A stretch of 39,759 nucleotides of DNA from Alphaproteobacteria bacterium. Lineage in GTDB: Bacteria; Pseudomonadota; Alphaproteobacteria; JALCBB01. The position numbers and the translations under genes were made by a program. The DNA lies in assembly GCA_028066985.1 (NCBI GenBank), contig JALCBB010000003.1:1-39759 (forward strand), written 5' to 3'. This document shows, piece by piece, positions 12,848-31,815 of the stretch. The notes beneath the pieces were generated by a model, which ran no database searches, was not told the origin of the DNA, and saw only the letters and a list, made by a program, of their open reading frames with translations. The first letter of the stretch is position 1, and each line of letters starts with the position of its first letter.

Positions 12848-12952
12848 AGCATCTACTCAGTTTATTTGTGGGAAAGGTCCGTCGGGCCTTCCACCAAATA
12901 AAACACCCTAACGGGGAATAAGTGGAATCTTTCCCACTTCTGGGTAGATGCT
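12848..12952 (+). other. Candidate structured RNA or 5' leader (three-way junction) upstream of the Sel1 lipoprotein gene
   Basis: A 13-bp closing helix AGCATCTACTCAG (12848-12860) / CTGGGTAGATGCT (12940-12952, one G-U). It encloses a ~20-bp imperfect hairpin (12861-12902, GTCG loop) and a 6-bp hairpin AAGTGG..CCACTT (12920-12939). No known RNA family recognised. Confidence 0.3.
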
Positions 12953-13013
12953 AAAGACCCGGCATCTCATATGTCGGCGTCTCCATCAGACCGGAAGTGG
13001 AGGAGGTTCCGCC

Positions 13014-13838: not shown

Positions 13839-14243
13839 TTAAGGCTTCGCCTCTGGACTTGCCATGGCACGATCTTTGGCATTAGTGGGAGTTTGATTTA
13901 GACATTCACGATGCTGGCTCAAGCGAGCGGCACCAACTGATGGGTGCGGGCTAGCCCGCAAAAAATTAAATTAAAAAGAAATTAATTTAATTTTAATTGA
14001 CCCCATTAATTGTCTAATTAATAATTAACAGAATAAATTTCTTTTTAACACATTAATTGTCTATTAATGAAAGGGCAATTGATTTAATTGGCCTCTTAAA
14101 TGGTCAAATTAATTTTTTATTTTTTTTTGCAGGCAGCGCCTGCGGGCATCAGTGGGTGCTGCTCGCTTGAGCGGCTACATTAAGAGTCTAAAATTAAGTC
14201 TCACTAATGCCAAAGATCGCACTTCGTCTGTCTTTAGAATTGG
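13839..14243. repeat. Composite palindromic intergenic element, copy E5 (complete, inverted relative to E3/E4; between convergent sel1 and tyrS)
   Basis: Here the left arm carries GCGGGCTAGCCCGC (13946-13959) and the right arm carries GCAGGCAGCGCCTGC (14129-14143). The AT-rich core has CATTAATTGTCTA boxes. The tyrS stop lies in the terminal TTAATTAA-like motif. Confidence 0.9.
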
Positions 14244-17542: not shown

Positions 17543-18022
17543 GTCTTCGCGGCGGAAACATTGACAATGACCTTGACGACGACAACGGCGACACCTTCAT
17601 CGTCAACTTCGACAGCGACGGTGACGACAAATTCACCGTCAATGGCAACGACAGCGACGGCACCTTCACTGTCAATGTCAACGGCGACGGTGACGACAAC
17701 GACGGCACCTTCACCGTCAACGGCGACAACAACGGCGCCTTCGTTGTCTACGGCGACAGAAACGGCGGCGCCTTCACTGTCAATGGCGACAACAACGGCG
17801 GCGCCTTCACTGTCAATGGCGACAACAACGGCGCCTTCGTTGTCTACGGCGACGGCGGCGCCTTCACTGTCAATGCCGACAACAACGGCGCCTTCGTTGT
17901 CTACGGCGACGGCGGCACCTTCACTGTCAATGGCGACAACAACGGCGGCAAATTCAACGGCAATGTCGGCGCCGTTTTCGTCAATAACTCCGACGGCAAC
18001 CGCGGCGCCGTTTTCGTCGACA
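17543..18022 (+). repeat. Degenerate tandem array (~11 units of 27-45 bp) built on CCTTC(A/G)(C/T)(C/T)GTC(A/T)A(T/C)GG-CGAC(AAC)n-GGCG
   Basis: Units include GCCTTCACTGTCAATGGCGACAACAACGGCG and GCCTTCGTTGTCTACGGCGAC (e.g. 17738-17749, 17771-, 17804-, 17834-, 17861-, 17891-, 17918-). All six frames are open across it. Confidence 0.9.
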
Positions 18023-19132
18023 ATGACGAAGGCGTCGGCAACTCCAACAGCAACACGCGGCAGAGTGGTCGTGGCAATGAGCGGCGGCGTAGACTCCTCG
18101 GTGAGCGCGGCGCTGCTGCACAAAGCAGGCTGCGAAGTCATCGGAATCACGCTGGAACTGTACGGCGCTCCGCTGAAGGCAGGCGCGCGAACCTGCTGCG
18201 CCGGCACAGACCGGCACGACGCACGCCGCGTCGCCGAACAACTCGGAATACCGCACTACGTGTTTGATCTCTCCGACAGATTCCGCGAAACCGTCATTGA
18301 CAACTTCGCCGACAGCTACCTGCGCGGCGAGACGCCGGTTCCGTGCGTGCAGTGCAACGCAGGCGTGAAGTTCTCAGACCTCCTGGACTACGCCCGCGAC
18401 CTGGACGCATCCGCGCTCGCGACCGGACACTACGTGCGGCGCATCGCAGGCGCGGCAGGGGCGGAGTTGCATTGTCCGGCGGACGGCGCGCGCGATCAGA
18501 CATGGTTCATGTTCGCGACAACACGCGAGCAACTGGAGTTCCTGCGGTTTCCGGTCGGCGACCTGCGCAAAGACGAAGTGCGCCGCCTCGCGCGCGACCT
18601 GGACCTCGCGGTCGCCGACAAGGCCGACAGTCAGGATATTTGTTTTGTGGGCGGCGACGGTTATGCGTCGCTGGTGGAGCGGCTGCGGCCCGGGGCGTGC
18701 GCGGCGGGCGAGATTGTGGATGTGTCCGGTCGCGTGCTTGGGAGGCATGACGGCGTGATCCACTACACGGTCGGGCAGCGGCGCGGACTGGGGCTGTCGG
18801 GCGGGCCGTACTATGTGGTGCGGCTGGACGCCGCGCGCGCGCGCGTGGTCGTCGGAAGTCGGGAGGATTTGCGGGTGCGACGCGTGAGTTTGCGCGGAGT
18901 GAACTGGCTCGGGGAGCGGTTCTGGGGCGACGGCGCCGTTTCTGGTCGAGATTTACGGGTGCGGTTTCGTTCGTCTATGGAGCCGGTGGGGGGGTGTTTG
19001 AGTTATGGCGGCGGTGGTGGCGGAGCGCTGGAGTTTACGGAGCCGGTGTACGGTGTTTCCGCCGGACAGGCGGCGGTTTTTTACGAGGGCACTCGTATGC
19101 TTGGCGGCGGCTGGATTTCCGACATTTCTTAA
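18023..19132 (+). CDS. mnmA: tRNA 2-thiouridine(34) synthase MnmA
   Basis: PP-loop VVVAMSGGVDSSV and catalytic cysteine context PVPCVQCN, 369 aa from ATG 18023. The ORF is open back to TTG 17561 through the tandem array, so an N-terminal APSLS-repeat extension cannot be excluded. Confidence 0.88.
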   Translation: MTKASATPTATRGRVVVAMSGGVDSSVSAALLHKAGCEVIGITLELYGAPLKAGARTCCAGTDRHDARRVAEQLGIPHYVFDLSDRFRETVIDNFADSYLRGETPVPCVQCNAGVKFSDLLDYARDLDASALATGHYVRRIAGAAGAELHCPADGARDQTWFMFATTREQLEFLRFPVGDLRKDEVRRLARDLDLAVADKADSQDICFVGGDGYASLVERLRPGACAAGEIVDVSGRVLGRHDGVIHYTVGQRRGLGLSGGPYYVVRLDAARARVVVGSREDLRVRRVSLRGVNWLGERFWGDGAVSGRDLRVRFRSSMEPVGGCLSYGGGGGGALEFTEPVYGVSAGQAAVFYEGTRMLGGGWISDIS

Positions 19133-19190
19133 TTGGGGCGGGGCGGAGATGGGCGGTTTCTGCGGACTTGAGGGGGGTTGCAAAGGAACG

Positions 19191-19313
19191 GCAAGGGTGG
19201 CGAGCGTATTTAGTTCCCTGCCCCTGCTTTTGTTCCGCGGGACGCATTGACGGCGCCGCGTTTTTTGTCGGGCGCGCGGACGCAGAAATACAACTTTAGG
19301 TTGTATTGCCCGA
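19191..19313. repeat. Outer inverted repeat, left copy (IR-oL) of the RM island; includes a pseudo-copy of the last 7 codons plus stop of the ABC ATPase gene
   Basis: Reverse complement of 30720-30842 with 5 mismatches in 123 nt (hand alignment). Positions 19191-19214 read GGC AAG GGT GGC GAG CGT ATT TAG, against GGC GAG GGT GGC GAG CGT ATT TAG at the true gene end. Confidence 0.9.
19287..19307 (-). terminator. Candidate terminator hairpin for res (AATACAAC-5nt-GTTGTATT), mirrored copy of 30726-30746
   Basis: 8-bp AT-rich stem with a short U-tract on the transcribed strand. Lies downstream of the res stop, within IR-oL. Confidence 0.3.
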
Positions 19314-19363
19314 ATTGATCTGTCGCGGAGGCGGCAGGCGTCCGCCGCCGCACGCCGCCCGGA

Positions 19364-22327
19364 TCACTGCTTGCAAAGGTCCACCTTGGACAGGCTCGTC
19401 ACCACATCATAGTCGACATTAATCGCCTTGAAGTGCTTCGCGCCGCAGTCGGTCTTCTGCTTCTCGGCCTTCCGCTGCTTGTCGCTGTTCGTGGTGCTTT
19501 TGGTCTCGCGGACAAAATACAGCCGCTCGTCACACTCGGTCATGAAAGCCCAGTCGGGATTGTACGGGCCGATCGGAGTGTCAACCTTGAACCAGCGAGG
19601 CAGTTTGACAAAAAGACGGACATGCTCGTTGTTGTCCAGGTCTCTGGCGAACTCCCTCTCAATCCTGGAGTCAACCTCGATCGCGTCATAGATGCACTTC
19701 CGCGCGTTCTGCACCCGGTGCAGTCTGTTCAGATAATGCGTGATGTCGCGCTCCGCATCGGCCTCGATGCGGCTCATCTCCCAGAATCTGTCGATCTTCT
19801 CGTACTGAATCCCCTTCAGCATCAGGCCCTGCAGCGCGCGCAGTATCTCCCGCGCGACCCGCGCCATGAACTGCTGAGGATTCACAGGAAACTCCCCCAG
19901 TCTGCGGGATCGCCTCAGAATCTCGACGAGCGTATGACGGGTTAACTCCGTCTCTCCCTGCAGATATGCCAGCAGGTCGGGCAGCGCCGCGCCGCTTTCC
20001 ACTTCCTGGCTCTTGTCCTCCAGCACGCGCTCGGCCGCCACTCCCGCGGCAAGCACATCAATGCCGACCCGCTTCACGGAAACCCGCGGCGCGCGGATCT
20101 TCTCCATCGCCATGATGCCTTTGACAGCGCTCGCGATCAGTTCGCCCGTGTCAAATTTCACCGAATAGCGGGTGCGGTGCCTGATTTTCTCCCACAGCGC
20201 CGCGAATTCAGGAGTCAGGAAAACCTCCTTGTTGAATTTGACGGACACTTTCTTCCTCGCGTCGGCGACGCGATTCTTGAAGATGTAATTCCGCACCACA
20301 TCCATGATTTCGGATTCAATGTCCCTGTGCTGCGCGTCGATCTTGAATTCAAAGTGCAGGCTGTCGGGATCAAATTTATCCTGTATCGCGCCGTCGGCGT
20401 CGATGTATCCCTCGACGAACAGATTGTTCCATATCGCCCGCGACTCCTCCTGGCCGATCGGAACATCCTCGCCGTCCGCCTCGCGGGTGATTCCGGCGAA
20501 ACTGATCTGTTCAATGTGTCCGAATCTGATGCCGAAATCTTCCTCAAATTCGCTCTGCAGGGTCGCGGCGAAATTCTCGTAGGATTCGTTGGCGATCACC
20601 GTCAGACGGTTGATGTTCTCGTCATAGACGCGCTCGCCGTCCGCGTTGACGCAGAGGCGGAGCCCGCGGCCGATTTCCTGCCGCTTCTTCTGAGCGCTGG
20701 CGGTCTCGTTGAGCGTGCATATCTGGAAGACATTCGGGTTGTCCCATCCCTCTCGCAGGGCGCTGTGCGAAAAGATGAAGCGCAGAGGCTCCTTCGGGTC
20801 CAGCAGGCGCTCCTTGTCGCGCATGATGAGGTTGTAGGCGTCCTCGTCGTCCTTGCTGCCGCGTTCCGTGGAGTCCTTCAGGTGTCCTTTTTTGTCCCGC
20901 GAGAAGTAGCCGTCGTGCATTCCGGAGATTTCATGGCCGAGGGCGTCAGGCGACAGATCCCTGTAAAGGGGTCTTGCCGTCAGGTCTCTGTAGGCGTCTT
21001 CAAACCATTCGGCGATTCTGCCGGGCGAGGGGGAGTCGTCCCGGCTGTATCTGCGGTAGTTGGCGACCCTGTCGATGAAGAACAGCGAAAGCACCTTGAT
21101 GTTTCTGCCGCGGAGGGCGAGTTCTTTTTTCAGGTGCTGCTCGACCGTTTCACGGACCTGGATCTTCATGACATCCTCGGTCTGGCTGCCGATCTCCTCG
21201 CCGTGTCTGAGGAATCTTCCGCCGGTGAATTCGATGTACTCCGCGCCCGGCGTGCAGTCAATGTTGTGGACAATGCAGCCCTGGCGGTAAATTTCGCGCC
21301 TTCCGGACTTTTCAAACAGGTCGTCGCCCTGTTTAACCCACATCCTGGCGGGTTTCACCGCCTCGTTTTTCTTCCTGTGGATTTCAATCTGAGCCCGGAT
21401 GGCGGGCTTGTTGTCGGTCTTCAGGAGCCGCACATAGGCCTCGTTAAAGCTGTCTTCGGACACGACGGAATCAACCTCGATGCGCTTGACGAGCCCCAGG
21501 TCGTAGGCTTTCACGGGGTCCAGTCTGTAGAGCAGGTTGTAGGGAGTGCGGTGGGTCGCGGAGTAGCGCAGTGTGACGGCGGGATTCAGTCTGTCAATGG
21601 CGTTTCTCGCCTTGTCCGTGTTGTCCACGCTCTGCGGCTCGTCGATGATGACGATGGGGTTCGTCGCCTGGACGAATTCAATCGGTTTGCGTCCCGACAT
21701 TCTGTCGTTTTCGCGATTGATGACATTGAGCCTCTTCAGCTCGTCTTCCGTCATCGCCGATATTTCCTTGTCGGAGATGTCTCGCTGAAAGGACTGGATG
21801 TTGATGATCATGATCTGAATCTGATTGCCCATGGCGAACTGCCGGACCTTCCCCAGTTTTCTGGAGTCGTAGATGAAGGAGCAGAACGGCTCGTTGTCAT
21901 AGAGCGCGTTGAAGTGCTCTCTGGTCATCTCAATGCTTTTCAGAACGCCCTCGCGCACGGCGACGCTCGGCACGACGATGATGAACTTTTTCAGCCCGTA
22001 TTTTCTGGACAGTTCAAAGATGGTGCGGAGGTAGACATAGGTTTTGCCCGTGCCCGTCTCCATTTCAACGGAGAACTGGCGTCCCTGCAGGGCGCCGGTT
22101 TTTTCGATGTTGTTTTCCTCCTGGATTCTCCGGACATTTTCCAGAATCTGCTCGTCCGTGAGGGTGATGTTGTTGGCGGTGCCGAGTTCCGTGGGAGTCA
22201 TGCCGGCGTCTCTCGTCAGGCTTATCTCAAATTTGGACTGCGCGAGGGGCTGGCCGTCGAACACATTGACGACGGCGTTGACGGCTTCCTCCTGGTGGGG
22301 GAGGTTGGAGGCGAATTTGATTTTCAT
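19364..22327 (-). CDS. res: Type III restriction enzyme Res subunit (SF2 helicase + PD-(D/E)xK nuclease)
   Basis: Motif I METGTGKTYVY, motif II IIDEPQS and a C-terminal nuclease motif NPDWAF...VRETK. The ATG at 22327 lies 10 nt after the mod stop; the upstream 36 codons of the track ORF overlap mod. Confidence 0.9.
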   Translation of the reverse strand: MKIKFASNLPHQEEAVNAVVNVFDGQPLAQSKFEISLTRDAGMTPTELGTANNITLTDEQILENVRRIQEENNIEKTGALQGRQFSVEMETGTGKTYVYLRTIFELSRKYGLKKFIIVVPSVAVREGVLKSIEMTREHFNALYDNEPFCSFIYDSRKLGKVRQFAMGNQIQIMIINIQSFQRDISDKEISAMTEDELKRLNVINRENDRMSGRKPIEFVQATNPIVIIDEPQSVDNTDKARNAIDRLNPAVTLRYSATHRTPYNLLYRLDPVKAYDLGLVKRIEVDSVVSEDSFNEAYVRLLKTDNKPAIRAQIEIHRKKNEAVKPARMWVKQGDDLFEKSGRREIYRQGCIVHNIDCTPGAEYIEFTGGRFLRHGEEIGSQTEDVMKIQVRETVEQHLKKELALRGRNIKVLSLFFIDRVANYRRYSRDDSPSPGRIAEWFEDAYRDLTARPLYRDLSPDALGHEISGMHDGYFSRDKKGHLKDSTERGSKDDEDAYNLIMRDKERLLDPKEPLRFIFSHSALREGWDNPNVFQICTLNETASAQKKRQEIGRGLRLCVNADGERVYDENINRLTVIANESYENFAATLQSEFEEDFGIRFGHIEQISFAGITREADGEDVPIGQEESRAIWNNLFVEGYIDADGAIQDKFDPDSLHFEFKIDAQHRDIESEIMDVVRNYIFKNRVADARKKVSVKFNKEVFLTPEFAALWEKIRHRTRYSVKFDTGELIASAVKGIMAMEKIRAPRVSVKRVGIDVLAAGVAAERVLEDKSQEVESGAALPDLLAYLQGETELTRHTLVEILRRSRRLGEFPVNPQQFMARVAREILRALQGLMLKGIQYEKIDRFWEMSRIEADAERDITHYLNRLHRVQNARKCIYDAIEVDSRIEREFARDLDNNEHVRLFVKLPRWFKVDTPIGPYNPDWAFMTECDERLYFVRETKSTTNSDKQRKAEKQKTDCGAKHFKAINVDYDVVTSLSKVDLCKQ

Positions 22328-22337
22328 GTTTCCGGCT

Positions 22338-24242
22338 TCAGACCGTCGTGAACACGATGCCGTCTTCTTCACGCGACTTGAAGGTCTGGGCGGCGTTGGT
22401 TTTGAGCTGGTCGTTGCCTTTGAAGCCCTCGTCAAGGCAGACGACCCGCCGGGGGGCGGCTTTCGCCATGGCGTCGATCACTTCCTGATTGAGTTCTTTT
22501 TCAAGGCACAGGAGCATTTCGCCGTCTTCAACGGAGAACACTTCCTTGCCCGCGAGGGCGGTTTTTTTGATCGGCGCGGTGAGCGGGAATCCGGCTTTCA
22601 GCAGGAGTTCATAGAGGATGTCTTCGGGCGTGCTTGCCGCGCGGATGTGGTCGATGTGAGCAAGGAGTTGGTCTTCCAGGTTTCCGGTTTCGTCCAGATT
22701 TCCATCCCATACTCTGAAGTTGGATGGAGCGAGCGCGAAAACTTTGAACCCAAGGTCAATTCCGGCGCCACTGGTCAAGCTGAGATGATCGTCGGACTCC
22801 TCCTTAATTTTTGCAGCCGCGCGACGGATACGATCCTTCCCGATGTCGGCGACGGTTTTGTACCCCGCCTTGTACGCTTCCGACGACTCTTCAATGTCTT
22901 CGGGAAGCTGGACCATTATGAATTTACGATTGCCGCCATCCTCCTTGTTGAGAGCAAGGACTGCATGCGCGGTTGTTCCAGAACCCGCAAAAGAGTCGAG
23001 GATAATGTCGTTCTGCTCAGAAACGGAGTCGAGAATGAGCTTGATTAACTTCACGGGTTTTGGATTCTGAAAAGCGCCGGGGCCCAAGATATGGGACAGC
23101 TCCGAGTTCGACTGCCTGGTGCTGCCAGCAAATTGATAACTCCAGAAGGTCGTCAGCTTGGTGTAGCTGCCGACATCTTTGAGGAATGTTTTCCGCTGAG
23201 GAACAGATCCCGGCTTCTCGCCGAAATAAATTCGATCGTCGCCGTCCAGCTCTTTTAGCGTCTCTTGTGAAAAGCGCGGATATGTGCCGGTAGGAGGCTC
23301 CCAGGTCACCCCGTTTGAAAAGGTGTATTTATACCGAGTTGAAGCCTTTCCTGACTTGGCATGGAGCGGTGTCAGGAGGTAGGGACCCCTTGGATCATTG
23401 TCAGGGTTTTTGTACACGCGGTCATGGTGCTGCGTTCTCTTCTGCCCTTTGATCCGGCAAAGATCCTTGTTTTTGGAGTAGCACAAAACGAATTCACAAT
23501 TCGTCGAGAAGTGCTTCGCGTCGTTTTTAACAGTGTCCATTCCCTGCCATGCAATCTGGGCCAGGAAATTCTCTTCCCCGAAAATATCGTCCATGACAGA
23601 GCGCAGGCGATGGACCTCATTGTCGTCGATTGAGATGAAAATCACCCCGTCCTCGCGCAACAGATTGCGGGCGAGGTACAGGCGGGGATACATCATGCTC
23701 AGCCAATTGGAGTGGTAACGCCCGATAGTATCCGTGTTGGTCGCAAATCGGTGACCCTCTGCGTCGATTTGGCGAGTATATGCAAGATATCTGCTCAATC
23801 CACTCGCGTACTTATCAGGATAAACGAACTCTCTTCCCGTGTTATACGGCGGGTCGATGTAGATCACTTTCACCATCTCGAAGTAGGACTTCTGCAGAAG
23901 TTTCAGCACCTCGAGGTTCTCTCCCTCAATAAACAGGTTTCCCGTGCCGTCAAAATTAACGGACTCTTCGCGGACAGGCTTGAGGGTGGCGACGCTCGGC
24001 TGCTGAAGGATCCTCATGCACTCCGCCTTGCCGGGCCAATTAAGACCGAAACGCTCCACGCCCGATTCCACCTGGTCGCCCAGGACGCGTCTTAACTGCT
24101 CGAAGTCAATCTTTCCGTCGCCGAACACTTCGGGATACAGCGCCCGCAGGCGTCTGCGCTTCTCGCGCGCGATGTCCAGAGAGGCGAGGTCTTCGCCGAC
24201 CGCCTCGATGCTTCCGCGCTTTGTGGTTTTTTGCTTCGTCAC
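22338..24242 (-). CDS. mod: Type III DNA methyltransferase Mod subunit (beta-class N6A/N4C)
   Basis: Motif IV IYIDPPYNTG precedes motif I DSFAGSGTTAHAV, with a variable central region between them. GTG start at 24242 with GAGGAGG 8 nt upstream. Confidence 0.9.
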   Translation of the reverse strand: MTKQKTTKRGSIEAVGEDLASLDIAREKRRRLRALYPEVFGDGKIDFEQLRRVLGDQVESGVERFGLNWPGKAECMRILQQPSVATLKPVREESVNFDGTGNLFIEGENLEVLKLLQKSYFEMVKVIYIDPPYNTGREFVYPDKYASGLSRYLAYTRQIDAEGHRFATNTDTIGRYHSNWLSMMYPRLYLARNLLREDGVIFISIDDNEVHRLRSVMDDIFGEENFLAQIAWQGMDTVKNDAKHFSTNCEFVLCYSKNKDLCRIKGQKRTQHHDRVYKNPDNDPRGPYLLTPLHAKSGKASTRYKYTFSNGVTWEPPTGTYPRFSQETLKELDGDDRIYFGEKPGSVPQRKTFLKDVGSYTKLTTFWSYQFAGSTRQSNSELSHILGPGAFQNPKPVKLIKLILDSVSEQNDIILDSFAGSGTTAHAVLALNKEDGGNRKFIMVQLPEDIEESSEAYKAGYKTVADIGKDRIRRAAAKIKEESDDHLSLTSGAGIDLGFKVFALAPSNFRVWDGNLDETGNLEDQLLAHIDHIRAASTPEDILYELLLKAGFPLTAPIKKTALAGKEVFSVEDGEMLLCLEKELNQEVIDAMAKAAPRRVVCLDEGFKGNDQLKTNAAQTFKSREEDGIVFTTV

Positions 24243-24261
24243 GATGTAAGCCTCCTCTCAG

Positions 24262-24290
24262 AGAGTGCCACTCGGACGCCGCGCCGTCAA
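24262..24290 (-). promoter_or_regulatory. Candidate promoter of mod-res (TTGACG-17 nt-CACTCT)
   Basis: The -35-like hexamer sits at the position equivalent to the TTGACA upstream of the Type ISP gene. It is preceded by the shared 32-nt box (24303-24333). The -10 is weak. Confidence 0.25.
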
Positions 24291-24359
24291 GCGCAATATA
24301 TAACCCCCCGCGGACGGCGGAAAAGCGAGGAAATCCGCGCATTTCCGCCATCCCCAGAC

Positions 24360-24463
24360 AGAAAACGACACGCTTACGCCTGGCAGACGGCTGGCGCCGT
24401 CTGCGGGCTGTCTCCGCCATTCCCGGGGGGAACGGCGGAGACAGCCGAGGCGTGTCGTTTTCT
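24360..24463 (-). other. 104-nt Y-shaped structured insertion upstream of mod, absent from the mirrored Type ISP upstream region
   Basis: Perfect 14-bp closing helix (24360-24373 / 24450-24463). It encloses a 9-bp hairpin (24383-24391 / 24396-24404, 4-nt loop) and a 13-bp hairpin (24406-24418 / 24434-24446) whose loop is itself palindromic (TTCCC..GGGAA). Confidence 0.7.
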
Positions 24464-24718
24464 CCCGTCAGCAAACTTTGTCCCCGTTAATAAGAAAACA
24501 ATTTATTTAATTGACCCCTTAAATAGTCAATAAATTATTATTTATTTTTTGCGGGCTAGCCCGCACCCGTCTGCCGGCATCGCTCGCTTGAGCCAACACC
24601 GTGAATGTCTAAGTCAAACGCCCACTAATGCCAGCGGCGAGCCGCCGCAGGCATAAGTTGGCGCGATTCGCTTGAGCCAACACCGTGAATGTCTCAGTCA
24701 AACGCCCACTAATGCCAG
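24461..24718. repeat. Inner inverted repeat, left copy (IR-iL) = half composite element E6 (half AT-rich core + hairpin + two tandem arm modules)
   Basis: Reverse complement of 25431-25688 with 1 mismatch in 258 nt (hand alignment: GTCTCAGTC vs GTCTAAGTC). Contains GAAAACAATTTATTTAATTGACCCC and GCGGGCTAGCCCGC, plus a duplicated module ...GAGCCAACACCGTGAATGTCT(A/C)AGTCAAACGCCCACTAATGCCAG. Weaker similarity extends to ~24773. Confidence 0.92.
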
Positions 24719-24796
24719 AAGCCGCCCTTCGCTTGTCTCCTAAAGAGACGAAAAAGGCGGCGCCGTTAATCCAGCCACCGAAACAAAGCACCTCCC

Positions 24797-25150
24797 TCAT
24801 CCACGACCATAATCGTCAGCATAACGCTCAATATCATCCTCCCCCAGATAATCGCCCAACTGCACCTCGCAGACCACGAGGTCGGCGTCTCCGTCGTTCG
24901 CCAGCCGATGCGCCTCGCCGACTCCGATTTCCACATGTTCGCCGACGCGCAGCACGCGCTCCACGCCCGCCACGAGCACGCGCGCCTCGCCCGAGACCAC
25001 CACCCAGAACTCGCGCCGCCGCCGATGGCTCTGCAACGACAGCCGCGCGCCCGCACGCACGACCAGACGCTTGACCTGGTATCCGGCGCCGGCGTCGACC
25101 GTGCGCCAGTATCCCCACGGACGCTCGTCGCTCTCGCCGACCTCGGGCAT
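24797..25150 (-). CDS. Cupin-domain protein (mannose-6-phosphate isomerase type II C-terminal-like)
   Basis: WGYW..G..VKRL.V..G..LSLQSH..R.E.W.VV.G motif pattern, 117 aa. GGAGGAG lies immediately upstream of the ATG. Confidence 0.7.
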   Translation of the reverse strand: MPEVGESDERPWGYWRTVDAGAGYQVKRLVVRAGARLSLQSHRRRREFWVVVSGEARVLVAGVERVLRVGEHVEIGVGEAHRLANDGDADLVVCEVQLGDYLGEDDIERYADDYGRG

Positions 25151-25164
25151 GGCTCCTCCAGAAG

Positions 25165-25238
25165 TAGCGGGGGAGGGACTCGAACCCCCGACACGCGGAT
25201 TATGATCCCGCTGCTCTAACCAGCTGAGCTACCCCGCC
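25165..25238 (-). tRNA. tRNA with CAU anticodon (elongator Met, or Ile2 if lysidine-modified); no encoded CCA
   Basis: Hand-folded cloverleaf: acceptor GGCGGGG/CCCCGCT (G1-U72), D arm GCTC-AGCTGGTTA-GAGC, anticodon stem GCGGG/TCCGC with loop A-U-CAU-A-A, variable loop GTGTC, and T arm GGGGG-TTCGAGT-CCCTC. Confidence 0.85.
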
Positions 25239-25255
25239 GTGGCTGCTCTGGAGGG

Positions 25256-25284
25256 ATTCTTGATTAAGTTTGTCGCGGCGTCAA
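25256..25284 (-). promoter_or_regulatory. Candidate promoter for tRNA-cupin (TTGACG-17 nt-AAGAAT)
   Basis: The -35 hexamer is the reverse complement of 25279-25284. The -10-like hexamer is the reverse complement of 25256-25261, 17 nt upstream of tRNA position 1. Confidence 0.3.
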
Positions 25285-25430
25285 GTGAGGTCGGAGGGGC
25301 GCTGATTTCGCCCTGCGGGAGCCATTAACGGCGCCGCCTTCCGGGGTTGGAGACGGCGGAGGCGGCGCCGGCCCAGGGGCTTCATTGACGGCGCCGCCTT
25401 TCCGCCCCTTAAACAGACGAAGAACAGCCC

Positions 25431-25688
25431 CTGGCATTAGTGGGCGTTTGACTTAGACATTCACGGTGTTGGCTCAAGCGAATCGCGCCAACTTATGCCT
25501 GCGGCGGCTCGCCGCTGGCATTAGTGGGCGTTTGACTTAGACATTCACGGTGTTGGCTCAAGCGAGCGATGCCGGCAGACGGGTGCGGGCTAGCCCGCAA
25601 AAAATAAATAATAATTTATTGACTATTTAAGGGGTCAATTAAATAAATTGTTTTCTTATTAACGGGGACAAAGTTTGCTGACGGGAGA
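25431..25688. repeat. Inner inverted repeat, right copy (IR-iR) = half composite element E7
   Basis: Mirror image of 24461-24718 (see that entry). Weaker similarity extends left to ~25381. Confidence 0.92.
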
Positions 25689-25741
25689 GGGCGGGAAAGG
25701 GGCGAATTTCCGCGCTTTTCCGCCGTCCGGCGGGGGGTGGC

Positions 25742-25770
25742 TTGACATTTTGCGTCTCCTGTGGTTTTCT
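25742..25770 (+). promoter_or_regulatory. Candidate promoter of the Type ISP gene (TTGACA-17 nt-TTTTCT)
   Basis: Perfect -35 hexamer at 25742-25747, preceded by the 32-nt box shared with mod (25707-25738). The TTG that opens the track ORF is the first triplet of this hexamer. The -10 is weak. Confidence 0.25.
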
Positions 25771-25831
25771 GTTTGGAGCGATTCGGGCGATTCGTTTCGC
25801 GCGGCATGTGTCCAAGGAGGCAAAAGGCGCT

Positions 25832-28800
25832 GTGTCAGAAGAAAAGACCATTCACGACATCCTGGATGAGTTGCGCGAAGACGCGCACCACTCTACGTCC
25901 AAGGGTTTCTCGTTTGAAGACCTGACGGTCGCGTATCTGCGCAAAGAACCGCAATACGCCGAACTCTTCTCGGATGTCTGGCTCTGGGGTGAATGGCCGG
26001 ATAACGGCGACAAACCCGACCGCGGAATTGACATTGTTGCTCGTGAACGGGTGAGCGGCGACTACTGGGCGATTCAGTGCAAGTTTTTTGACAGCGCAAA
26101 TCTTCTTTACCAGGGGCAAGTGGATTCGTTTATAGCGACTTCAGGTGTCACATTTCCGACGAGAGAGGGGGAGTTTCGCTACGCGCAACGGCTGGTTGTC
26201 ACGACGGCGCGGGGGCTGAGCGGCGGGACCCAAGATCTGTTTGAAGGGTATGACCCGCCTATCAAAACGCTCTTCACGCGAGACCTTGAGGCGAGCGCGA
26301 TTGACTGGGGTCAGTTTTCAAAGCACAAGAAACTCGCTGTCAAGGAGAAAAAGGCGCTGCGTCCGCATCAGACGGAGGCGGTAGACAAGGTCGTTGCGGG
26401 ATTCAAAGAACACGACCGCGGCAAACTGATCATGGCGTGCGGCACGGGGAAGACGCTTACCTCGTTGCGTCTGGCGGAACGGATGATGTCGGAGAATATG
26501 GTGGAGAAAGACGGGCAGATTCTGTTCCTGCTGCCGTCATTGTCCCTGGTGGCGCAGACCCTGCGCGAATGGACGGCGGAAGCGAAGATGAAAATGCACG
26601 CCCTCATCGTCTGCTCGGATAAAAAGATCGGGCACAAGCGAAGCAAGGACAGCGAGGATATTTTCCCGCGGGACATCGTTCATCCGGCGACGACCGACGC
26701 CGAGACCCTGGCGCGTTACGCGAAGCAGGTGGGGTCGGACAGGTGCAAGGTTGTTTTTTCCACCTATCAGTCGCTCAAAGTCGTGCGCGAAGCGCAGAAG
26801 AAGCACGGACTCGGCGAGTTTGATCTGATTGTCTGCGACGAGGCGCATCGTACGAGCGGTTTCCTCGGAGCGGAAGATGACGGGGAGGATTCGGGATTCT
26901 CCATGGTGCATGAGGACAAAAACATTCAGGGCAAAAAACGCCTTTACATGACGGCGACGCCGCGCGTCTACGGAGAGGCGTCAATCGCGCGGGCGAAGGA
27001 GAAAGAAGGGCAGCTCTTCTCAATGGATGACAAGGAGACCTTTGGTCCCGAATTTCACTATCTGGGCTTCGGCGAGTCGGTCAAGCGGGAACTGTTGTCG
27101 GAGTACAAGGTGCTGATCGTGGTGCAGGATGAGTCAACGATGTCGGGTCTTGCCGACAACTACAACTACAGGGTGAATCTGGCGAAAAACGACGAGGACG
27201 GAAAGGGGAAAAAGAGCAAGGCGAAACCCCTTAAACTCGATGACGCCGCCAAGATCATCGGCAGCTGGAAGGGTATGTCCAAATACCGGGTCCAGATGGT
27301 GGACGAGTCGGGAAGTGTCACAGGAGAGATCGCGGAAGACACGAAGCCGATGCGGCGCGTCGTCGCGTTCTCCAGGAGGATAGACAGCTCGGAGAGGATG
27401 AGAGACGCCTTCAACGATCTGACAGGCATCTACAAAGAGGATCTTCCCGAAGAAAAAGCGCAGAAGATGGTCGACTGCCAATTGAGGCATGTCGACGGCA
27501 CGATGGACGCCCTGAAGCGGGCGGCGTTTCTGGACTGGCTCAGGGAAGAGCACGGCGAGAGCGAGTGCAGGGTGCTGTCCAACGCCCGGTGCCTCTCGGA
27601 GGGCGTGGATGTGCCGGCGCTGGACGGCGTGGTCTTTTTTGACACGCGCGATTCAATGGTGGACATCGTGCAGGCGGTTGGCCGGGTGATGCGCAAGGTG
27701 AAGGGGAAGGAGTTCGGCTACATCGTTCTGCCGGTCTGCATCCCCAATACTCTGGTCAGCGATTACGACGAGTACATAGACAAAGACAAGCGGTTCGGCA
27801 ATGTCTGGAGGGTGCTTAAGGCGCTGCGCTCGCACGACGAGCGTCTGGTTTACAAATCGGAGTATCGTGAAAGGGTGGAGGTGATTCTGCCCGACCCGCC
27901 GCCGGACCCTCCGCCGGAACAGACCAACTTCTGGTTCAATCTCCATCAGCTCGAGGAGGCGGTCTCCACGATCATGCCGCGCAAGCTCGGGGATCAGGAG
28001 TATTGGAGCGAATGGGCGGAGGAGGTCGCGGATATCGCGGCGCGGGTCATCGGGCGCATCAAGAACCTGCTGGAAAACCCCGAAGCGAAAAAGCAGTTTG
28101 GCGTCTTCATAACGGGTCTGCGCGACAACCTAAACCCCCATGTCGGCGAGGGAGAAGCGATTGAAATGCTCGCGCAGCACATCGTCACCCGTCCGGTGTT
28201 TGACGCGCTGTTCGGGAGTTACTCGTTCGTCAAGGACAACCCCGTCTCAAAGGCGATGGAGGGGGTCGTGGAGGTTCTGGACAAACATGCGGTCGGGAGC
28301 GAGGTGGAAGGTCTGAACACCTTTTATGAAAGCGTGCGCGAGCGGGTGGGCGGCGCCACGGACCCCGAAGACAGACAGGAGGTCATCCGTCGGCTGTATG
28401 ACTCTTTCTTCAAGCACGGATTCAAGAAAATGGCCAGGGGTCTCGGCATCGTCTACACGCCGGGCGAGGTTGTGGACTTCATTCTCAGAAGCGCGGACTT
28501 CGCTCTGCGAAAACATTTTAACACGAATATATCCTCTGACGCAGTGCAGGTGCTGGACCCGTTCACTGGCACGGGTACTTTTATAGCGCAGCTGCTGCGG
28601 TCTGGACTGATCAGCCGGGAAGATCTGGAGCGGAAGTATCGGAACGAGTTGCATGCCAATGAGATCGTGCTGCTCGCCTACTACATCGCCTCAATCAACA
28701 TTGAGAGCGCCTTTGAACTTCAGGGCGGTTCCTCGCATCAGCCCTTCGAGGGCATTGTCTTCACCGACACTTTTCAGATGACCGAAAGCGGCGACCTTGT

Positions 28801-30706
28801 GGACAAGATCGTGTTTCCCGAGAACAGCGAGCAGGTCAATCGGCAAAACAGGCAGGATATCCGCGTGATTATCGGTAATCCGCCTTACAGGGGGAGACAG
28901 AAGAGCGAGGGCGAGGACAAGCCGAACCTGAAATATCCGACGCTGGATGACAACATTCGCGGCAGCTACGCGGCGAAGTCGTCTGCCACGAACACGAACA
29001 GTCTGTACGACTCCTACATCCGCGCCATTCGCTGGTCAACGGACAGGTTAAGGGCGGGGGGAGTCATCGCCTTTGTCACCAACGGCTCGTTCATTGACGG
29101 GAGCGCCGCCGATGGACTGCGCAAGTGTCTGATGGAGGATTTCAGCCACCTCTATGTGTTCAACCTCAGGGGGAATATCAGGCTGCGTGACAAGAGGGAG
29201 GGGGGCAATGTTTTCGGACAGAGCTCTCAGGCCCTGATCGCGATTACCGTCATGGTCAAAGACCCTGCACATGACGGGGGGTGCGAATTGCACTATCACG
29301 ACATCGGCGACTCTCTTTCACGCGAAGACAAACTCGCCATCATTAAAAAGGCCGTCAGCATTGAAAAAATTGACTGGACGCCCATCACGCCGAACGAGCG
29401 GGGCGACTGGATCAACCAGCGCGACCCCGCCTTTGATAAATTCATCTCGCTTGGCGACAAAAGGGGGGACACAAGCGAGGTTGTGTTCAATATTTATTCG
29501 GCTGGCGTCAAAACGGGACGGGACCCCTGGTCCTGCAACGCGTCGCGTCGCGAGGTCGAGGGCAACATGCGCCGCATGATCGCGAAGTACAACGAGGAGA
29601 GGGAGCGTTATCATGGCATCTGCGGTGATGCGGGCACAAAAGAGCGGCCGAAGATCGATGATGTCATCGATCAGGATCCGAAGAAAATCAAATGGACAAG
29701 GGAACTGAAGCAGTCCGCCGGAAAAAACAAACATCTGGCATTTGACGCGAACGCCACTGTCGCGGCCATGTATCGTCCGTTTTGCAAACAGCATCTGTAT
29801 TTTGACCGCGTTCTCGCGTCCATGACATATCAAACGCCCAAATTATTCCCGACACCCGAACACGGGAATATTGTGATTTCCACAGGGCGTAACCCTTCAG
29901 GACTGTTTTCTGCTCTGGTCGCAAGCTACCTGCCCGAACACCTGATGGTTTTCAACAGTCAAAATTTTCCGCTCTACTGGTATGAGAAGGTCAAGCAGGG
30001 CCAGAAGGAGCAGCTGGTCAATGTGACTCCTGACGCGCATGGCTATGTGCGGCGGGACGGCATATCGGACTGGGCGATTGCCAGATTCCGCAGTCACTAC
30101 GGGAACGACTCAATCAGCAAGGAGGATCTGTTCTGGTATATCTACGGTGTCTTCCATTCCCCGGAGTATCGGACGCGGTTTGAATCCGATCTGAAAAAGG
30201 AAATTCCAAGAATTCCCCTTGCTGGGGATTTTTGGACTTTCAGCAAGGCGGGGAAGGCGCTGGGCGAACAGCATCTGAACTATGAGACGGCGGAGCCTTA
30301 CCCGCTCACGGAGGACATGGGCGGTCAGATTCGGGAGCTCATGGAAGACGAGGGCTACAAGGTCCGTAAGATGCAGTTCGGCTGGACCGGCGAGAAGAAG
30401 GAGAAGGTGAAAGACAGGACAACCGTCGTCTACAACGACAAAATCACCCTGCGCGGCATTCCGCCGGAGGCATACGAGTATGTCGTCAACGGCAAATCGG
30501 CGATTGAGTGGATCATGGATCGCTATCAGGTCAGGGTGGACGAAAAGAAGGATGGCAGCGGCAGCGGCATCCGCAACGACCCCAACGACTGGGCGCCGGA
30601 CAACCCGCGCTACATCCTTGATCTGCTCAAGCGGATTGTCACTGTCAGCGTGGAGTCTGTCAAAATCATCAACGCCCTCCCGCCCCTCGACGAACACAAA
30701 GACTAG
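25832..30706 (+). CDS. Type ISP-like single-polypeptide restriction-modification enzyme (Mrr-type nuclease + SF2 helicase/translocase + gamma-class N6-adenine MTase + C-terminal TRD)
   Basis: Nuclease motif GIDIVARE..YWAIQCK. Helicase motifs MACGTGKT, VCDEAHRT and MTATP, plus a later SEGVDVPALD/VGRVMR. MTase motif I VLDPFTGTGTF and motif IV IIGNPPY. About 1620 aa. GTG 25832 lies 11 nt after AAGGAGG; a TTG 25742 start is unlikely. Confidence 0.85.
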   Translation: MSEEKTIHDILDELREDAHHSTSKGFSFEDLTVAYLRKEPQYAELFSDVWLWGEWPDNGDKPDRGIDIVARERVSGDYWAIQCKFFDSANLLYQGQVDSFIATSGVTFPTREGEFRYAQRLVVTTARGLSGGTQDLFEGYDPPIKTLFTRDLEASAIDWGQFSKHKKLAVKEKKALRPHQTEAVDKVVAGFKEHDRGKLIMACGTGKTLTSLRLAERMMSENMVEKDGQILFLLPSLSLVAQTLREWTAEAKMKMHALIVCSDKKIGHKRSKDSEDIFPRDIVHPATTDAETLARYAKQVGSDRCKVVFSTYQSLKVVREAQKKHGLGEFDLIVCDEAHRTSGFLGAEDDGEDSGFSMVHEDKNIQGKKRLYMTATPRVYGEASIARAKEKEGQLFSMDDKETFGPEFHYLGFGESVKRELLSEYKVLIVVQDESTMSGLADNYNYRVNLAKNDEDGKGKKSKAKPLKLDDAAKIIGSWKGMSKYRVQMVDESGSVTGEIAEDTKPMRRVVAFSRRIDSSERMRDAFNDLTGIYKEDLPEEKAQKMVDCQLRHVDGTMDALKRAAFLDWLREEHGESECRVLSNARCLSEGVDVPALDGVVFFDTRDSMVDIVQAVGRVMRKVKGKEFGYIVLPVCIPNTLVSDYDEYIDKDKRFGNVWRVLKALRSHDERLVYKSEYRERVEVILPDPPPDPPPEQTNFWFNLHQLEEAVSTIMPRKLGDQEYWSEWAEEVADIAARVIGRIKNLLENPEAKKQFGVFITGLRDNLNPHVGEGEAIEMLAQHIVTRPVFDALFGSYSFVKDNPVSKAMEGVVEVLDKHAVGSEVEGLNTFYESVRERVGGATDPEDRQEVIRRLYDSFFKHGFKKMARGLGIVYTPGEVVDFILRSADFALRKHFNTNISSDAVQVLDPFTGTGTFIAQLLRSGLISREDLERKYRNELHANEIVLLAYYIASINIESAFELQGGSSHQPFEGIVFTDTFQMTESGDLVDKIVFPENSEQVNRQNRQDIRVIIGNPPYRGRQKSEGEDKPNLKYPTLDDNIRGSYAAKSSATNTNSLYDSYIRAIRWSTDRLRAGGVIAFVTNGSFIDGSAADGLRKCLMEDFSHLYVFNLRGNIRLRDKREGGNVFGQSSQALIAITVMVKDPAHDGGCELHYHDIGDSLSREDKLAIIKKAVSIEKIDWTPITPNERGDWINQRDPAFDKFISLGDKRGDTSEVVFNIYSAGVKTGRDPWSCNASRREVEGNMRRMIAKYNEERERYHGICGDAGTKERPKIDDVIDQDPKKIKWTRELKQSAGKNKHLAFDANATVAAMYRPFCKQHLYFDRVLASMTYQTPKLFPTPEHGNIVISTGRNPSGLFSALVASYLPEHLMVFNSQNFPLYWYEKVKQGQKEQLVNVTPDAHGYVRRDGISDWAIARFRSHYGNDSISKEDLFWYIYGVFHSPEYRTRFESDLKKEIPRIPLAGDFWTFSKAGKALGEQHLNYETAEPYPLTEDMGGQIRELMEDEGYKVRKMQFGWTGEKKEKVKDRTTVVYNDKITLRGIPPEAYEYVVNGKSAIEWIMDRYQVRVDEKKDGSGSGIRNDPNDWAPDNPRYILDLLKRIVTVSVESVKIINALPPLDEHKD

Positions 30707-30719
30707 CGGACAAGCCGCC

Positions 30720-30842
30720 TCGGGCAATACAACCTAAAGTTGTATTTCCGCGACCGCCCGCCCGTCAAAAAACGCGGCGCCGTCAATGCGTCCCGCGGAA
30801 CAAAAGCAGGGGCAGGGAACTAAATACGCTCGCCACCCTCGC
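30720..30842. repeat. Outer inverted repeat, right copy (IR-oR); overlaps the genuine 3' end of the ABC ATPase gene
   Basis: Mirror image of 19191-19313. Contains the hairpin AATACAAC..GTTGTATT and the CATTGACGGCGCCGCG box (reverse complement, 30773-30788). Confidence 0.9.
30726..30746 (+). terminator. Candidate terminator hairpin for the Type ISP gene
   Basis: AATACAAC-CTAAA-GTTGTATT followed by TCC, starting 20 nt after the stop codon. Confidence 0.3.
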
Positions 30843-31815
30843 CAAAATAATACGCGCGCGCAGGATCAAACGATAAGCATACCTCGCCCGCAGGCGGAAC
30901 CTCATGCTGTCCGAAAAGACGCAGAGTCACAGTATGGCCGGAAACCGTCAGAATCACATTCGTGTCGCCGCCCAGATGCTCAATATGCTCAACCACACCA
31001 CGCAAATGTCCGTCGTCAGACAGGAAAAAATCCTCGGGACGCACTCCCAAAACACGCGGATCACCCTCGCTCAATAAACCCGCAGGCAAGAAATTCATCG
31101 CCGGCGAACCCAAGAAACCCGCCACAAACCGATTCACAGGATCATTGTACAACTCCATCGGAGTCCCGACCTGCTCGACACGACCCTCGCGCAAAACAAC
31201 AATCTTGTCCGCAAGCGTCATCGCCTCCGTCTGGTCGTGCGTGACATAAATCATCGCCGTCTCCAATTGACGGTGCAAATTCGCAATCTCAAGACGCGTG
31301 TTCATCCGCAGCGCCGCGTCCAGATTGGACAACGGCTCGTCAAACAGAAAAAGACGCGGCTTGCGGACTATCGCGCGTCCGATCGCCACGCGCTGGCGCT
31401 GTCCGCCCGACAACTCGGACGGATAGCGGTCAAGATATTCGCCCAGATTCAGCATCCGGCTCGCCTCCGCCACGCGAGACGCGATCACTCCCTTCGGCTG
31501 CCGCTCCTGCTTCAGCGCCAGCGACATATTGCCCCGAACACTCAAATGCGGATACAACGCATAACTCTGAAACACCATCGCCACTCCGCGCCGCGACGGC
31601 GGCACCGAATTCACCACCTCGCCGCCGATGCGAATCTCGCCCGATGTCGCGTCCTCAAGGCCGGCGATCACGCAAAGCAATGTGGACTTGCCGCAGCCCG
31701 ACGGACCCACAAAAACCACGAACTCGCCCTCGTCAATCTCAAGAGTGATGTCCGTCAGCACCTCCACAGCGCCGAAAGACTTGTACACCCCCGACAAAGA
31801 CGCCGCCGCGGTCAT
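30820..31815 (-). CDS. Sugar ABC transporter ATP-binding protein (MalK/UgpC family)
   Basis: Walker A GPSGCGKST, signature LSGGQRQRV, Walker B LFLFDEPLS and a C-terminal TOBE-like regulatory domain. Confidence 0.9.
   Translation of the reverse strand: MTAAASLSGVYKSFGAVEVLTDITLEIDEGEFVVFVGPSGCGKSTLLCVIAGLEDATSGEIRIGGEVVNSVPPSRRGVAMVFQSYALYPHLSVRGNMSLALKQERQPKGVIASRVAEASRMLNLGEYLDRYPSELSGGQRQRVAIGRAIVRKPRLFLFDEPLSNLDAALRMNTRLEIANLHRQLETAMIYVTHDQTEAMTLADKIVVLREGRVEQVGTPMELYNDPVNRFVAGFLGSPAMNFLPAGLLSEGDPRVLGVRPEDFFLSDDGHLRGVVEHIEHLGGDTNVILTVSGHTVTLRLFGQHEVPPAGEVCLSFDPARAYYFGEGGERI

Follow-up and report, generated by a model that had tools for sequence, protein, structure and literature searches.

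The stretch of DNA analysed here (hereafter, the window) comprises 39,759 nucleotides of an alphaproteobacterial genome (assembly GCA_028066985.1, contig JALCBB010000003.1, positions 1 to 39,759 of the forward strand). The island under study sits in it between two convergent housekeeping genes, mnmA (plus strand) and ABC331, which codes for an ABC-transporter ATPase (minus strand). It carries two unrelated restriction-modification (RM) systems arranged around a tRNA-Met gene and a cupin gene. Comparison with other contigs shows that the locus is a strain-variable defence hotspot with two bays located between conserved genes. We consider it probable (at roughly 0.65) that it is a two-bay, mirror-image chromosomal hotspot whose defence-gene cassettes are swapped by homologous recombination.

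According to this reading, a conserved centre of ca. 0.55-0.6 kb, which contains tRNA-Met with its own promoter, the cupin gene and a terminator-like hairpin, would separate the two bays. Each bay would extend from a 43-nt element, I5, to an outer module of ca. 150 nt and would house one outward-transcribed defence system with its own promoter; strains would differ by replacement of the whole cassette between I5 and the outer module. Such exchange would most likely occur by RecA-type homologous recombination in the centre and in the flanks, as at other hotspots flanked by core genes. An inverted duplication of one bay is the most likely origin of the mirror symmetry. Gene conversion between the sides would keep and re-create it, which would account for inner repeats that occupy equivalent positions but differ between haplotypes. 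Between the centre and I5 lie the 276-nt arms, which are copies of a dispersed repeat rather than a regulatory module of the RM genes.

Exact-protein look-ups placed the window on contig ctg64743c (2.27 Mb), at positions 1521530-1561288; the “c” at the end of the contig name may stand for a circular long-read contig. Contigs related to it come from metagenomes of the sponge Ianthella basta (PRJEB9378, “ENGE22” samples, and metagenome-assembled genomes (MAGs) at NCBI), and the MnmA protein cluster is named “MAG: Alphaproteobacteria bacterium” at NCBI. The host is most likely the dominant alphaproteobacterial symbiont of this sponge. For the population comparison, contigs from other sponge samples that share the identical cupin (18 contigs) or the identical ABC ATPase were used, most of them short-read metagenome contigs. 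Four haplotypes were distinguished:

H1 (this window; loci L001, L003, L011, L015 and L016): Type ISP-1632 on the ABC side, Type III-634/987 on the mnmA side
H2 (loci L002, L004, L012-14 and L017; sample PRJEB9378): DruE-like helicase with a 614-aa partner on the ABC side, Type ISP-1615 on the mnmA side
H3 (locus L008, a contig of 10.8 kb that shares its assembly with L001): an inward-facing, decayed Type I system on the ABC side; mnmA side not seen
H4 (locus L009; sample SAMN26001781): ABC side not seen; unrelated Type III-712/915 on the mnmA side

The earlier note had proposed looking for other cargos in related genomes, and such cargos exist: four combinations are found around the same cupin, so the RM genes are accessory. 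The ABC331-side flanks of H1 and H2 are 99.2% identical over 2.9 kb, their mnmA flanks 99.3% and their centres 98.8%. Since the flanks are about 99% identical, the two haplotypes represent strains of one species. Within the bays, the two Type III systems (634/987 and 712/915) share only 24-27% amino acid identity and the Type ISP alleles 1632 and 1615 share 72%, while the DruE-like helicase of H2 was recognized by PADLOC with an E value of 3.5e-150. The locus thus has the properties of a defence hotspot flanked by core genes: its flanks are conserved, its defence systems differ and there are no mobile-element genes in the variable region. The extent of replacement can be seen by comparing H2 with H4: over the 806 bp that lead from the centre up to and including I5, the two show 96% identity; directly behind the G-run of I5 they diverge, and the outer module is where they become alike again.

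The features of the H1 locus are, from left to right:

17561..19132, plus strand: mnmA (tRNA 2-thiouridine synthase), the conserved left flank (Pfam tRNA_Me_trans domains)
19126..19199, no strand: 75-nt boundary module “m64”, which begins at the mnmA stop codon and recurs in other contigs
19190..19338, no strand: outer module, left copy, ~150 nt (inverted repeat, alignments, folds)
19364..22327, minus strand: Type III res, 987 aa (Pfam ResIII and RE_endonuc; EcoP15I Res 4zcf_C, E 6e-63)
22338..24242, minus strand: Type III mod, 634 aa (Pfam N6_N4_Mtase, E 1e-37; PDB 6k0w, E 3e-85; EcoP15I Mod 4zcf_A)
24304..24346, no strand: I5-L, 43-nt inner boundary element (T-run, GC hairpin and G-run) just upstream of the mod promoter region (inverted repeat I5)
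24347..24460, no strand: 114-nt hairpin element, in the left arm region only (gap in the arm alignment)
24461..24736, plus strand: inner arm L, with AT-rich box B, T-run, GC hairpin and two 84-nt core units of the dispersed repeat (repeat searches, alignments)
24737..24796, minus strand: putative terminator hairpin and T5 after the cupin gene, with motif TTAACGGCGCCGC
24797..25150, minus strand: cupin of the phosphomannose-isomerase C-terminal type, 117 aa (Pfam)
25164..25238, minus strand: tRNA-Met (CAT)
25296..25412, plus strand: two putative terminator hairpins with the TT(G/A)ACGGCGCCGC motif, mirror images of the cupin-gene hairpin
25413..25688, minus strand: inner arm R, the inverted copy of arm L (inverted repeat, alignment)
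25694..25736, no strand: I5-R, the 43-nt element at the inner boundary of the right bay, ahead of the Type ISP promoter region (inverted repeat I5)
25832..30706, plus strand: Type ISP RM enzyme (Pfam Mrr_cat_2, ResIII, ISP_coupler, N6 MTase and Type_ISP_C; LlaBIII 4xqk)
30711..30843, no strand: outer module, right copy (inverted repeat, alignments)
30820..31815, minus strand: ABC331, the conserved right flank (Pfam ABC_tran and TOBE_2)

A repeat search of the window returned three nested inverted pairs. The inner pair (24461-24736 / 25413-25688) is 276 nt long and 97% complementary, with 676 nt separating the arms; the outer pair (19190-19313 / 30720-30843) is 124 nt long and 96% identical; the third pair, I5 (24304-24346 / 25694-25736), is 43 nt long and 86% identical. 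Chance cannot account for inverted repeats of such length and identity. The nested repeats described in the earlier note are therefore real, and the 258-nt inner arms given there are contained in the 276-nt repeat. Short-read contigs often break at the arms, as they would if the repeats were an assembly artefact. This explanation has next to no probability: the 2.27-Mb contig (L001) shares its layout with L003, an independent short-read scaffold that was obtained from another sample and covers the whole centre. Moreover, separate resolution of the two arms in assembly is evident from the 8 positions at which they differ and from the 114-nt insertion.

Gene annotation likewise bore out the claim that two unrelated and, judging by their sequences, apparently intact RM systems are transcribed outward from the tRNA-Met/cupin centre. 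On the left, res directly follows mod on the same strand (mod ends at 22338 and res starts at 22327). The predicted Mod carries N6-adenine methyltransferase motifs (DPPY and FAGSG in the translation), and the predicted Res combines an SF2 helicase-like ATPase with a C-terminal endonuclease, as expected for an EcoP15I-like Type III system. On the right, the start of the Type ISP gene was placed by gene callers at GTG 25808, which gives a protein of 1632 aa; its residues 5-1619 align to residues 13-1574 of LlaBIII 4xqk, a full-length match. Five Pfam domains follow each other in order on this single polypeptide, in keeping with the Mrr-like nuclease, helicase-like ATPase, coupler, gamma-class N6-adenine methyltransferase and C-terminal target-recognition parts of this enzyme type, and GTGKT, DEAH and NPPY motifs are present in the translation, so the enzyme can be classed as a putative LlaGI/LlaBIII-like Type ISP protein. 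As read from the translations, the catalytic motifs are kept in all three enzymes. Each cargo has its own leader and Shine-Dalgarno sequence after I5; for the Type ISP gene, these are TTGACA-17-TTTTCT followed by AAGGAGG. Phase variation of mod through simple-sequence repeats was considered and dropped, since no repeats able to drive it were found in mod.

The lower GC content of the RM genes had been taken as a sign of foreign origin. It is indeed lower, 0.54-0.57 compared to 0.57-0.71 in the other genes of the window (4-7 points). However, the third-codon-position GC content (GC3) of the RM genes (0.67-0.79) and their codon-usage distance to the rest of the window (0.065-0.138) both lie within the native range, and the Type ISP gene is among the most typical genes of the window in codon usage. 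The GC deficit is located in codon positions 1 and 2, i.e., it reflects amino acid composition. Since GC3 and codon usage are native-like, composition gives no sign of recent foreign origin and this argument fails; that the RM genes are accessory follows from the comparison of strains, not from composition.

The elements at the bay boundaries keep their places when the cargo changes. Pairwise alignment of 19190-19338 with 30711-30843 gives a length of about 150 nt for the full outer module; 16 nt are deleted in the right copy. Two hairpins are located in the left copy, a terminator-like one with T6 that faces inward from mnmA and an AT-rich one facing res. Regardless of cargo, the outer module marks each of the two bay ends in H1 and H2 as well as the single visible end in H4; it was found after both Type ISP alleles, both Type III systems and the DruE-like pair. 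I5 was found ahead of four cargos, namely both Type ISP alleles and both Type III systems. According to the folds, both elements contain conserved hairpins. A 59-kb portion of the genome has no I5, outer module, m64 or 114-nt hairpin other than those of this locus; the core of the dispersed repeat occurs 16 times in that portion.

For three or four unrelated cargos, the homology breaks are located exactly behind I5 and ahead of the outer module, and the same two hairpin-bearing elements are mirrored at both bays. This is what would be seen if I5 and the outer module were recognition sites of a site-specific cassette-exchange system encoded elsewhere, a possibility that we hold to be distinctly unlikely. 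The cargo ends share no short core site or repeat, the DruE-like cassette is present without I5, the H3 bay has neither element, and the long conserved homology on each side suffices for ordinary recombination.

At the right end of the island, the outer module reaches into ABC331 and encodes its final 7 codons and stop. The ABC331 gene has two alternative 3′ ends, ..GEGGERI* (outer module, window 30820-30843) and ..GEDGARLR* (L008 4090-4118). The allele with the latter, more canonical end belongs to H3; it has no outer module and is followed by a block that is otherwise found downstream of the paralogous ABC352, a second ABC ATPase gene. Comparison of these sequences suggests that the outer module displaced the native 3′ end of ABC331, and since alternative 3′ ends coexist in the population, recombination at the bay boundary would rewrite the C terminus of a housekeeping protein.

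Replacement of the 3′ end is also what could result from insertion of a transposon-like mobile unit bounded by the 124-nt terminal inverted repeats and carrying both RM systems, the tRNA and the cupin. Long imperfect inverted repeats at both ends, as well as a cupin that has no close relatives, would agree with this, and RM units with long inverted repeats and no transposase have been described (PMC2853133). Nevertheless, such a unit seems quite improbable to us. The bases outside the outer repeats, AAAGGAAC on the left and AAAATAAT on the right, differ, so there is no target-site duplication; the repeats stay put as the cargo changes, no empty site is known, and searches of 59 kb of the genome and of viral and JGI metagenome collections gave no further copy. 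Nor is there a transposase: Pfam and domain searches revealed no integrase, transposase or recombinase in the 39.8-kb window, and none is present in the gene tables of the other haplotypes.

A tRNA gene amid accessory defence genes also brings to mind a classical tRNA-targeted genomic island inserted by an integrase, which we regard as highly improbable here. In addition to the lack of an integrase gene, the 3′ end of the tRNA (26 nt) is not duplicated, occurring once in the window even when 3 mismatches are allowed; cargo is located on both sides of an intact tRNA gene, and the repeats are inverted, not direct. An integron was set aside as well, since there is no IntI integrase and no attC-like repeat at the cargo ends, and Rfam gave nothing at gathering score.

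Several observations point to recombination between the two sides of the locus. In the H1b sub-variant (L003, L115), the cupin-side junction carries 36 nt of tRNA-side sequence, and the boundary of this apparent conversion falls within the shared motif ACGGCGCCGCCTTT; over a span of 312 nt, arm identity amounts to 99% in L003, compared to 93% in L001. The two outer copies of a genome share a 2-nt indel, GGGAA--CT in both H1 copies and GGAAAGGCT in both H2 copies; unlike this indel, the cargo-proximal single-nucleotide polymorphisms (SNPs) of the outer copies follow position. The mnmA-side Type ISP cassette of H2 matches, in inverted orientation, the ABC-side cassette of H1 from I5 to the outer module, with 79-84% nucleotide identity that is highest at the gene ends. 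Cassette exchange between the two slots, which the earlier note had regarded as possible, is thereby supported, a homologous cassette being present in the opposite bay.

The 75-nt module m64 recurs in inverted orientation downstream of ABC352 in L012, upstream of the L008 cargo, and beside the outer module in L009. The L009 contig ends in the inverted 3′ end of ABC352, which follows the outer module, m64 and a core. Its order can be apparently derived from an H2-like genome by one inversion of ~25 kb between inverted m64 modules, with m64 the likely crossover site. The homogenization of arms between strains, together with this apparent inversion, argues for homologous recombination. Thus, the suggestion that the repeats serve as recombination substrates holds as far as arm homogenization and the L009 inversion are concerned, while the inversions of the central block and of the whole island that it included were both unseen.

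Near-identical inverted repeats around a short segment with a promoter-like site might, on the other hand, form a programmed switch, inversion of which redirects a promoter to either RM system (phase variation). A nested inner repeat is present in H2 too, and each arm contains a promoter-like site. We find such a switch very improbable. The promoter-like sites of the arms face inward, each RM system has its own leader and Shine-Dalgarno sequence, a terminator-like hairpin separates the centre from mod, and H2 does not have the 276-nt arms. Moreover, there is no adjacent recombinase gene in the window, and all eight contigs, from several samples, that span ABC331 through the cupin share one orientation. 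When iscS, MnmA-290 and Mod-634 were used as queries, H1 was the only haplotype retrieved, and there was no inverted isomer among the contigs. We infer that the repeats are substrates for occasional inversions, with no sign of a programmed switch.

The inner arms belong to a repeat that is dispersed over the genome. By a fuzzy search with its 51-nt core, 13 cores were located in the window. Units are typically palindromes of ~300 bp between genes, each of which consists of a core in minus orientation, AT-rich boxes A and B, a T-run, a GC hairpin and a 51-nt core in plus orientation (TCGCTTGAGC...CACTAATGCCA); typical full units are located at 6748-7036 (between convergent glmS and glmU), 12475-12768 and 13876-14213. 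In the window, the repeat occupies positions 1-113, 3980-4214, 6721-7105, 12448-12796, 13849-14233, 24461-24736, 25413-25688 and 39513-39735, and outside of it, L011 1787-2300 and L124 ~13005. The units often lie 0-40 nt from the stop codons of convergent genes or upstream of Sel1-repeat genes. Each island arm corresponds to the “right half” of such a unit (box B, hairpin and two tandem cores), with an 84-nt tandem duplication; the two arms are 97% identical to each other and 60-90% identical to other copies. The sole σ70-like match in each arm (TTGACC-16-AATTAT) is directed to the centre, away from the RM genes. Since the arms are copies of a dispersed repeat, their promoter-like match points centreward and they are missing from H2, they are not RM-specific. 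The claim that the same modules accompany both RM systems thus stands for the mirror-symmetric non-coding scaffold but not for the 276-nt “upstream module”.

H2 nevertheless has nested repeats of its own, an outer pair of ~155 nt and an inner pair of 103 nt (97% identical) around a 553-nt centre. Its inner repeat is unlike that of H1 in sequence; it consists of a terminator-like motif and an 85-nt palindromic element (TTATCCTCCACCACC...GGTGGTGGAGGATAA), without core units. In H2 and H4, the palindromic element replaces the core-repeat arms and flanks the centre on both sides (L002 9725-9827 and 10381-10483; L009 495-597); 59 kb of the H1 genome yielded no copy of it. Since the inner repeats of H1 and H2 differ in sequence at the same place, the architecture persists while its sequence changes.

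This persistence is also the starting point of a different proposal, namely, that the nested mirror scaffold itself is the selected feature, a recombinase-independent “twin-dock” platform for defence cassettes. Inverted identical I5 elements and outer modules would let an incoming cassette recombine into either bay, gene conversion would copy elements across, and paired inversions would move cassettes between the bays; symmetry would persist when the repeat sequence is replaced (276-312 nt in H1 versus 103 nt in H2). We judge selection of this kind unlikely. RM systems were reportedly found by Handa et al. in 2001 (cited in PMC3031569) to resist allelic replacement through post-segregational killing. 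One may speculate that the second bay arose since an RM system resisted such replacement, selecting for a duplication that retained both alleles.

As for the reading that we prefer, a mirror-image hotspot with cassettes exchanged by homologous recombination, a number of points weigh against it. No contig with an inverted centre or island was found, the eight spanning contigs mentioned above being uniform in orientation. The earlier note had suggested a search for an empty site or a single-copy ancestor in related genomes; neither an empty site nor a single-bay ancestor was found among the contigs examined. The nearest relative (L112, MnmA 76% identical) keeps the synteny tyrS-hydrolase-iscS-mnmA and has no modules downstream of mnmA, on a contig that ends 617 bp after mnmA. 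Short-read metagenome contigs are the source of most alternative haplotypes: the junction in L009, which runs across a 75-nt repeat, could be a chimera, and the identical arms of L003 could result partly from consensus collapse. A single indel and a single SNP next to it are the evidence for concerted evolution of the outer module. A site-specific mechanism would likewise produce cargo boundaries that are sharp at I5 and the outer module, and not every bay is bounded by these elements, as the DruE-like cassette (no I5) and the L008 bay (neither element) demonstrate. Finally, the cupin is without a close homologue.

The closest parallels are the Pseudomonas aeruginosa sites cDHS1 and cDHS2, where varying anti-phage systems occupy fixed positions between core genes (Johnson et al. 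2023, PMC10250203). As in cDHS1/cDHS2, the position here is fixed, the cargo varies between strains, mobility genes are lacking and exchange presumably proceeds via recombination in the flanks. Unlike them, the present locus has two bays mirrored around a tRNA-cupin centre, with shared 43-nt and ~150-nt boundaries and nested inverted repeats, and its host is an uncultured sponge symbiont of which four haplotypes are known. Furuta et al. 2010 (PMC2853133) described a locus where a Type III system was replaced by a pair of Type I and Type IV systems, as well as inverted-repeat units that flank a single RM unit and are unique to the insert, the clear cases having 8-bp target duplications and an empty site. 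The locus studied here resembles those units (PMC2853133) in the substitution of RM types at one locus and in having long imperfect inverted repeats without a transposase. It differs in that the repeats form a scaffold of the locus, persist through cargo change, enclose two systems and a tRNA gene, and are not associated with a target duplication.

In Neisseria, Saunders and Snyder are said to have described in 2002 minimal mobile elements, gene cassettes, often of RM genes, that vary between two conserved genes. These elements have no mobility genes and are exchanged by homologous recombination in the flanks, and natural transformation is documented. Cassette exchange without mobility genes is common to both cases, but the neisserial bays are single and have no mirror symmetry. 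In invertible shufflons of Type I hsdS genes and in phase-variable RM loci, repeats are located inside the specificity genes, a tyrosine or serine recombinase gene is adjacent, and inversion is frequent. Such systems and the present locus both have inverted repeats in an RM locus that allow inversion of DNA; here, however, the repeats are intergenic, there is no recombinase, and a single orientation is seen. In the large inverted repeats of plastids, copy correction keeps the copies near-identical within a genome as they diverge from one genome to another, and insertions in one copy spread to the other, as would be the case here. The repeats of the present locus measure 0.1-0.3 kb, not tens of kb, and copy correction would be deduced from the two H1 sub-variants and H2.

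Defence hotspots between core genes and RM substitution are known already; the twinned, mirrored bays with shared short boundary elements distinguish the present locus from these. Cargo turnover without mobility genes is poorly understood, and the locus provides a compact natural example, with four haplotypes of one (vertically transmitted) sponge symbiont, a 99%-identical background and base-exact cargo junctions at 43-nt and ~150-nt elements. If the mirror arrangement is functional, it would be a simple recombinase-free means to shuffle and double immune cargo. If it is not, the locus would still be a clear case of allelic RM/defence replacement and repeat copy correction in an uncultured symbiont. 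A word of caution also follows: conspicuous inverted repeats can be assembled from the ordinary dispersed intergenic repeats of a genome.

The centre itself is highly conserved. The cupin is 100% identical on 18 contigs, i.e., on every contig that carries it. No homologue of more than 62% identity was found elsewhere; among the matches listed in the search of genome contigs, there were only distant cupins (at most 63% identity) and no related species. A σ70-like match, TTGACG-17-AAGAAT, is located at 25284-25256, just upstream of tRNA-Met. The TT(G/A)ACGGCGCCGC motif forms the loop and the 3′ stem of a hairpin that is followed by a T-run. It is enriched in the window (26 matches versus 5.1 expected) and, with at most 1 mismatch, occurs six times in the island, at 19247(+), 24290(-), 24769(-), 25325(+), 25385(+) and 30786(-). 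Five of the six point into a bay from its boundary, and the sixth (24290) lies within the mod leader. The hairpin at 25356-25412 has a predicted free energy of -33.7 kcal/mol (z = -2.84). With moderate support from the folds, these hairpin and T-run motifs presumably act as terminators, and since they face into the bays, transcription in the bays seems to be insulated from that of the neighbouring genes. Transcription of mod-res by read-through from the tRNA promoter was also considered and set aside, as a hairpin with T5 follows the cupin gene, which is a weak argument.

The 114-nt element next to the left arm folds into an imperfect hairpin of -92 kcal/mol (z = -8.35). A related copy is present at L008 9538-9606, on the tRNA side of the centre in H3.

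We treat the dispersed repeat as an element similar to miniature inverted-repeat transposable elements (MITEs) or to repetitive extragenic palindromes (REPs); it could be an element with outward promoters, a small RNA or a leader. In an RNAalifold analysis of 16 distinct units, support was limited to the 5′ GC hairpin, with 3 compensatory pairs, and to a closing stem of 4 bp. The 51-nt core, which is conserved, was predicted to be unstructured, and a role of the core repeat as a structured RNA was rejected. An intrinsic terminator at the GC hairpin of the core unit was ruled out on both strands, since the T-run precedes the hairpin. No Rfam family matched any of the modules at gathering score or at permissive E-values, the MIR8562, sRNA-Xcc1 and Pab19 matches being far below their gathering scores, and scans of JGI metagenome and viral contigs for the outer module and the core repeat gave no matches. 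The sRNA-Xcc1 match, at 12881-12971 on the plus strand (35.2 bits versus a gathering score of 53, E 6e-4), falls for the most part within the leader that separates a core unit from the Sel1-repeat gene starting at 12948. The window contains two such eukaryote-like repeat genes (4231-4830 and 12948-13838), each directly after a core-repeat unit, and the GC and AT skews of the first one (4231-4830) are opposite to those of most genes in the window.

Two additional sites of variable defence cargo are located nearby, within 20 kb. In H2, Shango genes SngA/B/C (PADLOC E values down to 2e-239; L012 2231-8123) replace about 10 kb of ABC operon and sugar-transport genes. Upstream of Shango, the flank is made up of a core, m64 and a promoter-like box, TCTATAATGG; the Type I cargo of L008 is preceded by a flank with 100% identity to this one. 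In H1, a DarT-Macro (DarTG) pair follows ABC352 just to the right of the window (L120 11750-13474).

On the left flank, gene callers place the start of mnmA at 18260. The upstream part of the open reading frame (17561-18050), a 5′ extension of mnmA, consists of GC-rich tandem repeats with a period of ~30-33 nt that encode motifs like ..NGGAFTVNGDNN..; a related array, at 9130-9460, lies inside or upstream of a YhdP-like gene. MnmA is called as a protein of 290, 346, 364, 368 or 369 aa in different strains, since gene callers split the tandem-repeat region differently. This region holds most of the divergence between H1 and H2 on the mnmA side, with 92% identity compared to about 99% elsewhere.

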